A stretch of 64,000 bases of DNA, from the IMG/VR virus record IMGVR_UViG_3300020190_000004. One strand, written 5' to 3'. Shown here piece after piece: positions 22,665-32,236 of this stretch. Every line of letters begins with the position of its first letter. Position 1 is the first letter of the stretch. This DNA comes from a virus (lineage: Duplodnaviria > Caudoviricetes). The notes below the pieces were generated by a model. It had not been told where the DNA came from, did no database searches, and saw only the letters and a list, made by a program, of their open reading frames with translations. A program made the position numbers and the translations under genes.

Positions 22665-23561
22665 TTATTGTATGTAAAAATACTGTGATAGTAATTCTCG
22701 TGATTCTTCTTGTGTTATGGTTTCTTGTTTGGTTAATTCAGTAAGGCTTTCCATGAATCTGATGCCTTCAACGGTAGGTAACATATTACCGTTTTTAAGG
22801 AAGAACAAAGGTGATCTAAGGTGAAACCAGAGCGGCGATTTTTCATCTTCTTGAACTATTTTATCAGCAAGTTCAAAATGTCTTTCATAATAATGAATGT
22901 TATCTGCACAATGATAATAAGTACCTAGTTCCAAATCTTTGTATGTATCTTTTAACCAGTACCACATACTTTGCTGCACGAATGAAAAGAACGGAGCATC
23001 ATAGGTAAGGCCAAAGAATATATCGTTACTGCGCATTTGAACTTTCATGTTAAGTTTGTTGTCGCGGATCCAAAAGTTTAAGTACATAGTGCAAACAAAA
23101 TCTTTGTTGCCCTCATACTGAAATTTAGGTTGATTTAAGAAGCATACAGCTTGACGGGTATTCTTGTCTTTTTTCAAAGAGTCAAGCGCCCACTGTAACT
23201 GATCACCAAACAAGAGGTTTCCGTAGTTGGAATTTATATGACCACCTTCATCAGCGATGTTTTTCCAAAAGGAGGAAAAGTTATTGATAAAATCAATGTT
23301 GCGATCCTTTAGAAGATACCAGCCAAGTTCACCCATAAAATACTTGTAGTTAAAAGGGCGATCCTCAAAGTCCATGAGGGAAAAATGAGGGTCTAATCTT
23401 AGCATTTCAAGTTCAAGCTCACGAACTTTTTGTCCGCGAGGCGCTGATTCTGTACCAAAAGAATTTATTCGGCAAATAAGTTCTTTTACAACGTTAGAGA
23501 TTGATAGTTCTGTTGACGAGGTTAAAGATGCTTTCCGCATCAATGTAGTTGTCTCCTTCAT
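22665..23561 (-). CDS. Thymidylate-synthase-fold dCMP hydroxymethylase/hydroxylase (T4 gp42-like)
   Basis: INSNYG, RQAV, DFVCT, MRSNDIFFGLTYD (Asp at the specificity position), HYYERHF. Confidence 0.75.
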   Translation of the reverse strand: MKETTTLMRKASLTSSTELSISNVVKELICRINSFGTESAPRGQKVRELELEMLRLDPHFSLMDFEDRPFNYKYFMGELGWYLLKDRNIDFINNFSSFWKNIADEGGHINSNYGNLLFGDQLQWALDSLKKDKNTRQAVCFLNQPKFQYEGNKDFVCTMYLNFWIRDNKLNMKVQMRSNDIFFGLTYDAPFFSFVQQSMWYWLKDTYKDLELGTYYHCADNIHYYERHFELADKIVQEDEKSPLWFHLRSPLFFLKNGNMLPTVEGIRFMESLTELTKQETITQEESRELLSQYFYIQ

Positions 23562-24048
23562 TAATTTTGATTTTGATTTTGTTAATTATGTTTGAGTTGT
23601 TAAATGCTTCCTGAAACTTAAAAATTTCTTTTTTCTTATCTTCTAAACGATTAGAGTAAGATTCTCCATCATCATTTTTGACAATAAATTCTGGGTCACC
23701 TTCAAGAAGAACTAGTGTGATGTTATCATCATCAGATAAAAATTTGTTTTCTAATTCTGGAATCCACCCGTCTGGATGAGAATCCCGATAAATTGTACCG
23801 TATACATATTCACCGATGTGTGAACGATTCCAAATAAGTAATTCTAAATCTTTGAGACTCTGTTTGAATTTGTAATCTTTCATGTAAAAGCCAAACGAAA
23901 TTTTCTGATACTCAGTTTTTTCTTCGTTGGTATCACCATAAGGATAGCCCCAATGAACTTTTTGAGAGTTAGGGTATTTTTCTTGTAAGGCTTTAACAAG
24001 GGTGTCTTTACCAGTTCTGTCAGTACCTTCTATAATAACTAATTTCAT
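23494..24048 (-). CDS. Deoxynucleoside monophosphate kinase (thymidylate-kinase-like)
   Basis: IIEGTDRTGKDT P-loop; WNRSHIGEYVYG. Confidence 0.8.
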   Translation of the reverse strand: MKLVIIEGTDRTGKDTLVKALQEKYPNSQKVHWGYPYGDTNEEKTEYQKISFGFYMKDYKFKQSLKDLELLIWNRSHIGEYVYGTIYRDSHPDGWIPELENKFLSDDDNITLVLLEGDPEFIVKNDDGESYSNRLEDKKKEIFKFQEAFNNSNIINKIKIKINEGDNYIDAESIFNLVNRTINL

Positions 24049-24081
24049 ATAAGTTTATATTCAGAATAAGTGAATAAGTTT

Positions 24082-24735
24082 TTACCAAAGGTCAAGTGTT
24101 GTTATCAAGATGTTATGATCTGAATAGCTTGATGGTTCTACAGTTTGACTTAAAATCTTTAAGGATTTCTTGGGAATAAATGTATAATCTAACACCTCTC
24201 CTGCATCCCACGTATCTTCTTCGTTTATGTACGTATACTTCTCTTTAAGATTTAGCAATATCTCGTCGTTTGCGTTAAGATTAAAGTCACCACACAATAT
24301 ACAGTCAGAAAAATCGTAGTTTTTGTGAAAGTTTTTCCAGTAAGTAACTTTATGAACTCTTGGTGCATGTAAGTTTACAAAATCAAACACCGAGTTTTTT
24401 ACCCGAAATCTTATCATTTGCGCTGAGTTGTTTTCTTTAACGTTAGCTATTTTTAAGTGAGTTACTCCTTCAGTTTTTAGTCTGGAAAAAGTTGCTAAAC
24501 CAAATAGTCCTCCGTCGGTTTCACAAAGTTGGGTAAATGTACTCGGCGTGCCTAAAACTTTTTCCAATGCCTTTACCTGGTTTACTTCACCTGATCTTTC
24601 TGTAAATATGTCAATTTCCTGGACTGCATATATGTCAGCGTTTAAAGATTTTAGTTTCTTGCCTATTCTATCTATATCCACAAGGCCATCATTCCCTAAT
24701 GCATGTCTTATATTCCAAGTAACAATTTTTATCAT
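24082..24735 (-). CDS. Endonuclease/exonuclease/phosphatase (EEP) family protein
   Basis: VTWNI, AVQEID, CGDFN, LDYTF, SDHN. Confidence 0.85.
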   Translation of the reverse strand: MIKIVTWNIRHALGNDGLVDIDRIGKKLKSLNADIYAVQEIDIFTERSGEVNQVKALEKVLGTPSTFTQLCETDGGLFGLATFSRLKTEGVTHLKIANVKENNSAQMIRFRVKNSVFDFVNLHAPRVHKVTYWKNFHKNYDFSDCILCGDFNLNANDEILLNLKEKYTYINEEDTWDAGEVLDYTFIPKKSLKILSQTVEPSSYSDHNILITTLDLW

Positions 24736-30250: not shown

Positions 30251-30278
30251 AGATAAGTTATTTGGGTATATATATGTT

Positions 30279-31847
30279 CTACATTTGTGCGATTAAATTC
30301 TTTGCCCTGACATAGAATGCTGTTTGTCTTTTGCGATCATCAGGATGAAAAGGAATGGCTGTAACAAGAAGAAGAATAGCAAGTTTCTTTAATAGAGTTA
30401 CATCATATCCTAAATTATGTAATTCAGTTTCCAAGAACTTAGACAAGTCTTGGGTTCCAGGAACCCAATCAATTTCAAGAGTTGTATCTTCAATTTTGTA
30501 ACGATTTGCCATAATCATTGCGTACCCACAGTAAAAATCTTGTAAGAGTTTTGCCATGTCATAGCGCATATCACCTTCGTTCCAATAGAAACCACCAAAC
30601 TCACCACGAGGATCAACAAACTTAATGTTACCACTGTGTGGGTCATATATAATGTTGCCCAAATGAGAATCTCCATGCATGCAAGAAGACCAAGCAGGGT
30701 CTTTAACTAATTCTAGCGAAGTATCAAGAAGAAAAGATTCAAGTTCGGTATCACGATGACCAAGTACTTCCCAAATATCTTCTAACCTGTTAGAAGTTTT
30801 TATGTAATATGCTTCAAGACATAATTGTGCTTCTTCACCTTTTGGCTTAAATGAAAGATTAGTATAAAACACACTGTGATGAACCTTTAAGATCTTGCGA
30901 ATAATATCATGCCAAATATCGGTTCTTAAGTTGTCATAAACAAGAACCTCATTAAGAGCAGTACCAGGCTCAAGTGTCATTCTTAAAGAACCAGCTTCGC
31001 TCTTCAAAATCCTTGGACAAAAGAGAGATTGCTTTTCATCGAGATTTTCAAACCAGTTCTTTTCCGCTTGTATCTTTTGTTGTTTTTCAGGATCCTGAGA
31101 TGTTTTAGTTACTGTGCCAAAAAATGTATCAACTTCAATCTTGTTAAAAGAACGAGCAGTTCTCTTAAGCAATCTTGCTTTAGACTCATAGTAAGTATTA
31201 AGTTCACCGCAATCATACCATTCTTCAGCAAAGGCAAGTTCCATGGGTCCGTCCTTTTTCATGTAAGATTCCAAGAGTGCCGCGATTTGGTATTCACCTT
31301 TATGAGTAGGTTTTGACATGCCCTTTTCCATCCCATGATTAAAAGCTTTACGGTCAGTAAAGTTATACACACCAATAATAGCAGAATCTGTAGGCACTTG
31401 TCCGTCAGGCTTATCATACAGTTTTCCGTCTGCATCAACCAAACACCAGCGATGTGGGTCAGAAACTCTATGGACGGCCAGAAAAGACCTGTTGTAATTA
31501 AAATCGTCCAGGCAAATGGTATCACCTAACCAAATAGTTACGTTGCTTGAGAAGTCTTTTAATTGCTTATACCCGATGTCTATTGCGTGAAGCGGCCCAA
31601 GTTTTTCTTCTTGCACATAGCAACGAATGTTTTTGTCAGGATAAACCCGACTTACAAATTCTCTGATGTCACCCAATTCATTTTCAACAATGACAACTTC
31701 AGATACATCTTGCTTTTCATATATCTTTTCTATGATATAAGATATTAGAGGACGACCGTTTACGGGTATCATTGCTTTACTTACACCTCGGGACAGAGGT
31801 TTCATGCGAGTAGCAAGGCCAGCGGCCGGAATAATTACGCTTCTCAT
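30279..31847 (-). CDS. Sugar nucleotidyltransferase fused to an APH/choline-kinase-like phosphotransferase
   Basis: IIPAAGLATRMKPLS...KAMIPVNGRP; HGDSHLGNI, VDPRG, YDMAKL. Confidence 0.8.
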   Translation of the reverse strand: MRSVIIPAAGLATRMKPLSRGVSKAMIPVNGRPLISYIIEKIYEKQDVSEVVIVENELGDIREFVSRVYPDKNIRCYVQEEKLGPLHAIDIGYKQLKDFSSNVTIWLGDTICLDDFNYNRSFLAVHRVSDPHRWCLVDADGKLYDKPDGQVPTDSAIIGVYNFTDRKAFNHGMEKGMSKPTHKGEYQIAALLESYMKKDGPMELAFAEEWYDCGELNTYYESKARLLKRTARSFNKIEVDTFFGTVTKTSQDPEKQQKIQAEKNWFENLDEKQSLFCPRILKSEAGSLRMTLEPGTALNEVLVYDNLRTDIWHDIIRKILKVHHSVFYTNLSFKPKGEEAQLCLEAYYIKTSNRLEDIWEVLGHRDTELESFLLDTSLELVKDPAWSSCMHGDSHLGNIIYDPHSGNIKFVDPRGEFGGFYWNEGDMRYDMAKLLQDFYCGYAMIMANRYKIEDTTLEIDWVPGTQDLSKFLETELHNLGYDVTLLKKLAILLLVTAIPFHPDDRKRQTAFYVRAKNLIAQM

Positions 31848-32236
31848 ATTTTATTTTCAGCTTTTATGATATTCTCAAAAAATTCAGGGTTATCAAGTAC
31901 AAAAGACTTGAGCGATAGGTTGCGGTTATCAACATAAATAGGGTTTTCTCCCCAAGGTTTTCCCATGATGAGGCGGTCAAATCTCACACCGTGCTTTAAT
32001 AGCCATTCATCGAGAACGGGAGCTGTATTTTTATAGATAGCCTTAATGTTGCCTTTATGCGTTCGCATTCCTCGGGCAGAAAAAAGAATGATTGTATTTC
32101 CCGCTTCGTGTAATTCATTAATTCGTTCAATAACACGAGGAAAGGGGGTTGCGTTAGGGTAATCGTAGGTTCCGTCTTCTTGCTTTTCTGCGTGACAGAT
32201 GGTTCCGTCGACATCAAGTATGTATGTGTTTGGCAT
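31844..32236 (-). CDS. HAD-family (capsule-biosynthesis-type) phosphatase
   Basis: DVDGTI, FSARGM, GKPWG, YVDNR; start re-assigned to MPNTY. Confidence 0.8.
   Translation of the reverse strand: MPNTYILDVDGTICHAEKQEDGTYDYPNATPFPRVIERINELHEAGNTIILFSARGMRTHKGNIKAIYKNTAPVLDEWLLKHGVRFDRLIMGKPWGENPIYVDNRNLSLKSFVLDNPEFFENIIKAENKI

Follow-up and report, generated by a model that had tools for sequence, protein, structure and literature searches.

A putative cytosine hypermodification cluster of a lake-water jumbo phage, with a predicted 5-hydroxymethyl-dCMP synthase, a sugar supply module and several glycosyltransferases

Which modified base would a phage make with a thymidylate synthase (TS)-fold enzyme, a cytosine C5-methylase-like protein, four neighbouring glycosyltransferases (GTs) and its own sugar-activating enzymes? 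The question is raised by a cluster of ten genes in IMG/VR virus record IMGVR_UViG_3300020190_000004, a 64,000-nucleotide stretch of DNA (hereafter the window) from a jumbo phage of lake water that is distant kin of the Lak megaphages and of T4-like phages. In the 5-hydroxymethylcytosine (5hmC) pathway of the T-even phages the enzymes are the T4 dCMP hydroxymethylase gp42, the gp1 kinase and the alpha- and beta-glucosyltransferases, with a beta-glucosyl-HMC-alpha-glucosyltransferase (HMC, hydroxymethylcytosine) in T2 and T6. Hypermodification protects phage DNA from restriction enzymes and CRISPR nucleases, and the modifying enzymes are a source of tools for epigenetic sequencing and DNA labelling. 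We propose that the cluster probably encodes a cytosine hypermodification system of the jumbo phage, in which 5hmC would be formed before replication and glycosylated in DNA, the sugar donor would come from an Afh-type supply line, and the DNA-acting enzymes would be tethered to the sliding clamp. The combination of gp42-type chemistry with an Afh-type sugar supply and several transferases is new, as are the fixed pairing of a methylase-like gene with a gene resembling that of T4 beta-glucosyltransferase (BGT) and a terminal tail motif found on these enzymes.

The gene cluster and its predicted base

Ten head-to-tail open reading frames (ORFs) occupy positions 22665-32320, all on the minus strand. 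An earlier note on this stretch, made from the sequence alone, had described such a one-strand block of ten genes with named domains, and the block and its domains are present in Pfam and PHROG matches; of the span that it gave (22665-32236), the start fits, and the end falls inside the last gene, the true end being 32320. The ten genes are as follows.

22665-23561 (-): TS-fold enzyme, predicted 5-hydroxymethyl-dCMP synthase of the T4 gp42 type; Pfam PF00303 Thymidylat_synt, E 6.7e-18
23494-24048 (-): thymidylate-kinase-like nucleotide kinase, predicted substrate 5hm-dCMP; phrog_761, 1e-12
24082-24735 (-): endonuclease/exonuclease/phosphatase (EEP)-fold enzyme, accessory; Pfam PF03372 Exo_endo_phos, 1.1e-10
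24735-25967 (-): C5-cytosine-methyltransferase-fold protein with K-x-L-F tail; PF00145 DNA_methylase, 1.4e-14
25967-27355 (-): GT-B enzyme nearest T4 BGT, predicted base-proximal DNA glycosyltransferase, with K-S-L-F tail; PF13524 Glyco_trans_1_2, 8.8e-8
27408-28076 (-): GT25-family GT-A enzyme, candidate second or later sugar transferase; Pfam PF01755 Glyco_transf_25, 1.3e-18
28006-29514 (-): second GT-B enzyme (start probably 29469); Glyco_trans_1_2, 24.3 bits, just under the Pfam cut-off
29471-30250 (-): TAGT-like GT-A enzyme with R-K-L-F tail; phrog_842, 3.5e-8
30279-31847 (-): fusion of a sugar-1-phosphate nucleotidyltransferase and an APH-type sugar kinase (AfhE-like); NTP_transferase, 8.4e-16; APH below cut-off
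31844-32320 (-): HAD-family sugar-phosphate phosphatase (AfhF-like); HAD_PNKP, 1.8e-6

For the second GT-B the listed TTG start is probably wrong, as an ATG 15 codons further in, at 29469, agrees with the orthologues.

The closest solved structure to the TS-fold protein is T4 gp42 (E 5.7e-19, about 31% identity). The motifs INSNYG, DFVCT and RSND...GLTYD quoted in the earlier note are all found in it; the catalytic Cys of DFVCT aligns with C146 of ThyA, and the Asp that had been singled out aligns with gp42 D179. We aligned the window enzyme with E. coli ThyA, T4 gp42, an Aeromonas gp42 homologue, RB69 gp48, Ac42 p077, a Pootjesviridae enzyme, SPO1 gp29 and seven relatives, and read 13 sites that correspond to residues near C5 of dUMP (ThyA numbering). 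The window enzyme and its seven relatives match gp42 at 12 of these 13 sites (W80, Y94, D143, C146, T147, M165, R166, S167, N168, D169, G173 and D177), position 142 being the sole site at which the window enzyme departs from gp42. The three enzymes associated with 5-hydroxycytosine (5hoC) have A80, E143, Q168, N169 and V173 in common, and the window enzyme differs from them at all five; it keeps the Asp of RSND, where the RB69, Ac42 and RHph_I34 enzymes have Asn (D169N). Nor does it carry the Asn177 and Leu143 of canonical ThyA, Asp being present at both positions. The TS homologues of RB69, DLP3 and others make 5-hydroxy-dCMP, and in the scheme derived from them Asn at ThyA position 169 is the mark of 5-hydroxy-dCMP synthases, Asp177 indicates use of dCMP, and an acidic residue at 143 indicates a non-methyl (hydroxymethyl) product (Lee et al. 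NAR 2026, PMC13326640).

In a maximum-likelihood tree, the phylogenetic check that the earlier note had called for, the 5hoC enzymes form a clade with 100/100 support that leaves out the window enzyme, which also falls outside ThyA; it sits in a clade of its own. The relatives of the window phage encode a separate canonical ThyA (302-327 bits, vs 63-66 bits for the copy in the cluster) and also a dCMP deaminase. T4 likewise has a separate ThyA and a dCMP deaminase. Asp at position 177 and these two separate genes bear out the cytosine-directed, pre-replicative pathway proposed before. The earlier choice between hydroxymethylcytosine and hydroxycytosine can be narrowed by the active-site signature and the tree: because the active site is of the gp42 type and lacks D169N, and because the enzyme lies outside the 5hoC clade, we predict that the base is 5hmC, and 5hoC is disfavoured. 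The TS-fold enzyme would turn dCMP into 5-hydroxymethyl-dCMP as T4 gp42 does, and the adjacent kinase would phosphorylate this product, leading to 5hm-dCTP that is incorporated at replication.

The kinase has a P-loop of the type G-x-D-x-x-G-K and scores 23.1 bits against Pfam Thymidylate_kin, below the cut-off. In every relative, the distant LR756500.1 among them, its gene is the immediate upstream neighbour of the TS gene, and the RB69 and DLP3 clusters have an analogous kinase (PMC13326640).

The order of the cluster is kept in at least six other phage contigs (L002/3, L007, L010-L012 and L024, by tblastn against the loci), running from the HAD and fusion genes through variable transferases, one or two methylase-like genes, sometimes the EEP gene, the kinase and the TS gene to a protein of 143 amino acids and, further on, GT2-TPR and HtrL genes. 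Since the same genes occur in the same order in these contigs, the cluster is not a chance assembly. For two related IMG/VR contigs, 202 and 238 kb long, the estimated completeness is 66% and 84%, respectively. Three features adjoining the cluster will be needed below.

22232-22663 (-): conserved 143-aa protein, directly downstream of the TS gene; no family match
17335-20773 (-): downstream glyco-genes, coding for an FkbM methyltransferase, an HtrL/YibB-domain protein and GT2-TPR; Pfam; link to the DNA pathway uncertain
33192-33791 (-): phage sigma factor ending E-L-F; Sigma70_r4_2, 6.9e-14

Orthologues of the 143-aa protein, 47-67% identical, follow the TS gene in L002, L007, L010-L012 and L024; Pfam and PHROG gave no lead to its function, and an Atlas feature search returned only sub-threshold matches. 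The EEP protein retains the catalytic motifs QE, GDFN and SDH, and its orthologues are present in L010-L012 and missing from L002, L007 and L024. A phmmer search of the PDB gave no match for it, and we regard it as an accessory enzyme whose candidate roles are those of a nuclease for unmodified DNA or of a phosphatase.

Sugar supply and glycosyltransferases

The HAD protein, which contains the DVDGT motif, aligns with RB69 gp51 along 88 residues at 33% identity (E 1e-10) and matches phrog_1238 (1.1e-18). The fusion protein matches RB69 gp53 and gp52 (E about 1e-5 each) and phrog_24015 (6.8e-43), carries the kinase motif HGDSHLGN, and also matches the same gene in T4-like phages with RB69-type TS homologues, namely Ac42 and the Serratia phages WSPA and 92A1. 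The HY126 and RB69 counterparts of the two proteins are an arabinose-5-phosphate 1-kinase/UDP-arabinose pyrophosphorylase and a 1,5-bisphosphate phosphatase (PMC13326640). The sugar-donor supply by a kinase, a nucleotidyltransferase and a phosphatase that had been postulated for this locus is thus homologous to the nucleoside diphosphate (NDP)-sugar module of RB69. Because of this homology to the arabinose-supply enzymes of RB69 and HY126, the HAD and fusion proteins most likely provide an NDP-sugar, with a sugar phosphate as starting material. Along the AfhF/AfhE route of RB69 and HY126, sugar-5-phosphate would be converted via sugar-1,5-bisphosphate and sugar-1-phosphate into a phage-specific NDP-sugar, the sugar being possibly arabinose from host arabinose-5-phosphate.

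The first GT-B had been labelled BGT-like in the earlier note, and at the level of the fold the label proved apt. With its AlphaFold model (mean pLDDT 77.5) as query, Foldseek placed T4 BGT entries at ranks 1-5 and 7 (best E 2e-8), and VIA-align gave Z scores of 19.7-20.5 against BGT, with 307-316 residues aligned at 15-16% identity and all of BGT covered; the next GT-B was about 2 Z units lower, and T4 alpha-glucosyltransferase and the HY126 transferase were near Z 16. In sequence the protein stands outside the BGT family, as it matched only PF13524 and not the Pfam BGT model, and phrog_7922, annotated as beta-glucosyltransferase, gave a weak match (2e-4 over 63 residues). Gene context and a polymerase-like C-terminal tail (see below) lend indirect support to the prediction that it transfers a sugar to 5hmC in DNA.

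The TAGT-like protein has a DxD motif that reads DND, scores 19.6 bits against Pfam TAGT PF20691 (cut-off 27.5) and matches phrog_842, annotated as beta-glucosyl-HMC-alpha-glucosyltransferase, the second-sugar transferase of T2 and T6 (3.5e-8). A phmmer search of the PDB gave no match for this protein or for either GT-B. The GT25 protein is a clear member of its family, with an EDD motif and a match to phrog_2835, annotated as glucosyltransferase. The second GT-B has orthologues of 24-68% identity at the equivalent position in the relatives. Neither of these two has the LF ending described below, nor has any of the FkbM, HtrL/YibB and GT2-TPR proteins, whose genes recur in L002, L007 and L024 about 2-6 kb past the TS gene, on its downstream side. 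In the pathway proposed here the BGT-like enzyme, to judge from its fold, would add the first sugar to 5hmC in DNA, and the TAGT-like enzyme, perhaps with the GT25 protein and the second GT-B, would lengthen the sugar chain. That some of these transferases serve another acceptor is a possibility to be taken seriously, if not the outcome we expect.

A methylase-like protein, its BGT-like partner and a shared C-terminal tail

The PF00145 match to the methylase-like protein spans profile positions 56-296 only, and the first 55, unmatched positions are presumably the place of the cofactor-binding motifs I-III. In an alignment of 20 sequences, CPCAGLS, GENAPGL, PQxRxR and QNVP (motifs IV, VI, VIII and the motif X region) are invariant, as is PLIGGM, which we take to stand for motif I in place of the canonical FxGxGG; what we read as the acidic residue of motif II occurs in the window protein but varies across the family. 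A Rossmann fold is still predicted, and the model (pLDDT 86.8) superposes over its full length on M.HaeIII, M.HhaI, DNMT1 and a carboxymethyltransferase; phmmer against the PDB gave no match. The segment between motifs VIII and IX is rich in invariant residues. Target-recognition domains of restriction-linked methylases are typically variable.

Distant homologues, 46-51% identical to the methylase-like protein, occur in phages with very different backbones, and in five of six such contexts an orthologue of the BGT-like gene stands beside the methylase-like gene, the sixth contig ending beside it. The pair is found in L022, L024, L033, L034 and L036. A TS gene is present in three of the distant contexts; in L022, L034 and L035 a TS-family hidden Markov model detected none closer than 10 kb to the methylase-like gene. 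All five pair-bearing contigs have sugar-modifying genes alongside, and the sugar-nucleotide genes around the distant homologues include those for epimerase/dehydratase, DegT, acetyltransferase, cytidylyltransferase and LicD. Because the two genes are adjacent in five of six very different contexts, they are a conserved pair across phage lineages, a result that goes beyond the earlier note. The methylase-like enzyme would be a conserved member of the pathway, and would most likely modify (methylate) the cytosines that escape replacement. L010-L012 carry two methylase-like genes side by side, a tandem duplication; each product shares 41-48% identity with its window counterpart and ends in the LF tail.

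The second result beyond that note concerns the C-termini. Among 186 window ORFs of at least 60 residues, only four end in LF: three from the cluster (the methylase-like protein and the two transferases of BGT-like and TAGT-like type) and the sigma factor encoded about 1 kb upstream of it. In the related genome G002, 6 of about 306 genes end in LF, vs 1.3 expected; they encode the C-terminal half of a split DNA polymerase, the methylase-like protein, a GT25 protein at the same place in the cluster, the BGT-like protein and two others. The DNA polymerases of L022 and L034, which are unrelated contigs, have the C-termini TTSLF and TTSIF, TTSLF also terminates modification enzymes in L033 and L036, and a LicD protein inside the L036 modification cluster ends in KKLF. 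Among database homologues, 100 of the 116 full-length members of the BGT-like family end in LF, as do 78 of the 118 methylase-like members, nearly all the others of which finish with two aliphatic residues. The TAGT-like orthologue of L011 has the same ending, and the sigma-factor orthologues have the tails KNKLF and QLFEE. In the models of the methylase-like and BGT-like proteins the tails lie in low-confidence ends, which are presumably disordered.

RB69 gp43 and gp55 also have short C-terminal tails, which we take to be the clamp-binding motifs of T4-type phages. We infer that the K-x-L-F tail is a putative sliding-clamp-binding motif that marks enzymes acting on DNA, because the tail is common to these enzymes and the replicative polymerase, T4-type phages offer a precedent for such tails, and the alpha-glucosyltransferase of T4 binds the gp45 clamp (PMC13216743). 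To judge from the conserved terminal motif, the tail could hold the methylase-like, BGT-like and TAGT-like enzymes on newly replicated DNA via the clamp. Two ideas for testing are that the widespread methylase-like family is a fixed partner of the BGT-like DNA glycosyltransferase, and that a simple C-terminal tail marks the phage enzymes that act on DNA at the replication fork; in the latter case the tail could serve to sort true DNA-modifying glycosyltransferases from the tens of thousands in viromes.

The two other LF proteins of G002 are a GH16 glycoside hydrolase (143966-144682) and a 141-aa protein without a family (35318-35743); their endings may be due to chance, or the proteins may be further clients of the clamp. 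The family B DNA polymerase of G001, G002 and L040-L044 is split into two genes 13-17 kb apart, and its C-terminal half ends in RTQLF.

Alternative readings, known systems and neighbouring genes

Two alternatives concern the base itself. If the TS-fold enzyme made 5-hydroxy-dCMP, like its homologues in RB69 and DLP3, the cluster would yield arabinosylated 5-hydroxycytosine, a known modification, and the parts list shared with those phages (TS homologue, Tmk-like kinase, GT-B, AfhF-like HAD and AfhE-like fusion) is what such a reading would lead one to find; the absence of D169N, the gp42-type residues at positions 80, 168 and 173 as well, and the place of the enzyme outside the well-supported 5hoC clade make it most improbable. 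It is also very unlikely that the enzyme makes 5-methyl-dCMP (XP12 type) or uses dUMP, which would give DNA with 5-methylcytosine or 5-hydroxymethyluracil. The enzyme belongs to a clade of its own, no member of which has been assayed, and this leaves room for such a product; Asp177, however, favours dCMP, Asp143 goes with hydroxymethyl products, the relatives encode ThyA separately, and the acceptor of a BGT-like transferase must offer a hydroxyl group.

The other alternatives concern the transferases and the methylase-like gene. Only one or two transferases might act on DNA, giving a mono- or disaccharide as in the T-even phages, while GT25, the second GT-B, GT2-TPR, HtrL and FkbM serve virion proteins or glycans of the host envelope. 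We treat this as a real possibility without favouring it: among the window transferases only the BGT-like and TAGT-like enzymes have the tail, six small ORFs separate the TS gene from the downstream glyco-genes, and the GT25, HtrL/YibB, GT2-TPR and FkbM families usually act on lipopolysaccharide, proteins or glycans; yet GT25 and the second GT-B are flanked by tail-bearing DNA enzymes, as are their equivalents in the relatives, the GT25 protein at that place in G002 does have the tail, and GT2-TPR and HtrL remain linked to the cluster in L002, L007 and L024. It is rather doubtful that the methylase-like gene is an ordinary orphan DNA methyltransferase for escape from restriction, functionally unlinked to hydroxymethylation and glycosylation. 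The fold is that of a C5 methyltransferase with all catalytic motifs, large phages often have many orphan methylases, and the tandem duplicates of L010-L012 could mean different specificities; against this, the gene keeps its BGT-like partner across widely differing backbones whether or not a TS gene is nearby, its product has the same terminal tail as other modification enzymes, and the region between motifs VIII and IX is highly invariant, unlike variable target-recognition domains, with motifs I and II atypical. We also think it unlikely that the methylase-like protein has a new C5 chemistry, and the same low estimate applies to the fuller proposal that it is a new DNA-level C5 enzyme other than a plain S-adenosylmethionine (SAM)-dependent methylase, with the BGT-like protein as obligate partner, both riding the clamp via K-x-L-F and making an undescribed glycosylated cytosine. 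Such an enzyme might generate 5hmC at the DNA level, act on the hydroxymethyl group by activating or exchanging it, or work with a different cofactor, and if the proposal were true the undescribed base would be widespread in aquatic jumbo and T4-like phages.

Several points weigh against the hypermodification system as we propose it. The TS signature is a predictor built on a limited set of tested enzymes, so that 5hm-dCMP is a predicted product, and the deep branches of the TS tree are weakly supported and do not settle the deep placement of the window clade. No MazG-type dCTPase was found in the window or the relatives (genomes 66-84% complete), and the replacement of cytosine may therefore be partial; full replacement, for its part, would leave a C5 methylase without substrate. 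No SIS-type arabinose-5-phosphate isomerase was found in the scanned window ORFs or in three relatives (32-84% complete), and thus arabinose would need a host source, or the sugar is another one; a host enzyme could supply arabinose-5-phosphate. The tailless GT25 and second GT-B could act on another acceptor. A search of three related phage records with the Pfam beta-clamp and gp45 models and an RB69 gp45 query, with phmmer on G002, did not find the clamp; a gp44-like clamp loader is present in the relatives, and the ORFs adjoining it are gp2-, portal- and head-closure-like. As the clamp itself was not found, the clamp-binding function of the tail stays at the level of inference.

The cluster resembles the T-even 5hmC pathway in the gp42 active-site signature of its TS enzyme, in a GT-B nearest to BGT and a TAGT-like second transferase, in the separate ThyA and dCMP deaminase of the relatives, and in the precedent of the T4 alpha-glucosyltransferase and the gp45 clamp. 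It differs in that the TS enzyme lies in a separate clade, about 31% identical to gp42, the kinase is Tmk-like rather than gp1-like, no dCTPase was found in the window or relatives, and the cluster brings along an NDP-sugar supply of its own, as many as four transferases in one block and a conserved C5-methylase-like gene. With the arabinosyl-5-hydroxycytosine clusters of RB69, DLP3 and HY126 (PMC13326640) it shares a TS homologue, a Tmk-like kinase, GT-Bs and an AfhF-like HAD beside an AfhE-like fusion, whereas its TS enzyme is without D169N and outside their clade, the isomerase for arabinose-5-phosphate was not found in the records scanned, and GT-A transferases, an EEP enzyme and a methylase-like gene are added. 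The combination predicted here, hitherto undescribed, is T4-style 5hmC with a sugar-activation module so far known only from arabinosyl-5-hydroxycytosine phages and with up to four clustered transferases. A C5-methyltransferase-fold gene with a TAGT-like GT-A and a GT-B is also reminiscent of the methyltransferase/TET (5mYOX)/glycosyltransferase clusters (Burke et al. 2021; Pyle et al. 2023 preprint), and in metagenomes methyltransferases, APH phosphotransferases and secondary GTs occur near ThyS-linked GTs (Pyle et al. 2023 preprint). Here, in contrast, the hydroxymethyl group is predicted to come from a pre-replicative TS route, and the TET scheme does not explain the role of the methylase-like gene; three related phage records gave no Tet_JBP match, and neither did control genomes.

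The window is dominated by minus-strand genes and is part of a large phage, whose major capsid protein shares 39-44% identity with its counterparts in Lak megaphages and in an uncultured phage of 462 kb. A megablast search of the cluster against 50,697 phage records gave no match, so that no close sequenced relative is annotated. The host is probably a member of the Bacteroidota, because window protein(s) encoded by ORFs within 35849-63496 contain CHU_C/type IX secretion and SprB repeat domains (PKD-like domains occur as well) and a protein of one relative is labelled as coming from a Bacteroidota metagenome-assembled genome.

Promoter class was considered as a means of splitting the glyco-genes and dropped, because the T4 late promoter TATAAATA is not enriched (found twice, vs 4.3 expected) and the GATAAATA that lies ahead of the GT2-TPR gene shares letters with the stop codon of the gene before it. 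Scans for sigma-70 promoters and terminators gave counts at or under the level of shuffled sequence.

A protein with a cREC_REC (cyclic-phosphate-processing receiver) domain is encoded at 21656-22027 (-), between the DNA modification genes and the downstream glyco-genes. On the other side of the cluster, a TROVE/Ro60 protein (33956-35581, -) and a SET-domain protein (41559-42461, -) are encoded nearby, and a 2OG-Fe(II) oxygenase (prolyl-hydroxylase-like, not Tet_JBP), a cytidylyltransferase-like protein and a calcineurin-like phosphoesterase stand in a row at 37796-39832 (-); the cytidylyltransferase-like protein has a 49%-identical homologue inside the L033 modification cluster. A class I SAM methyltransferase and, next to it, a weak LicD-family protein are encoded at 48773-50157 (-), a short way downstream of the genes for the head protease and the capsid. 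This LicD-family protein lacks the LF tail; L036 has LicD, methyltransferase and cytidylyltransferase genes inside its TS/methylase-like/BGT-like cluster. ARAGORN detected a phage-borne tmRNA with the tag peptide AQTKESCWWSLTYP at 51444-51911 (-), beside a tRNA-like gene with an undetermined anticodon at 51025-51107 (-).

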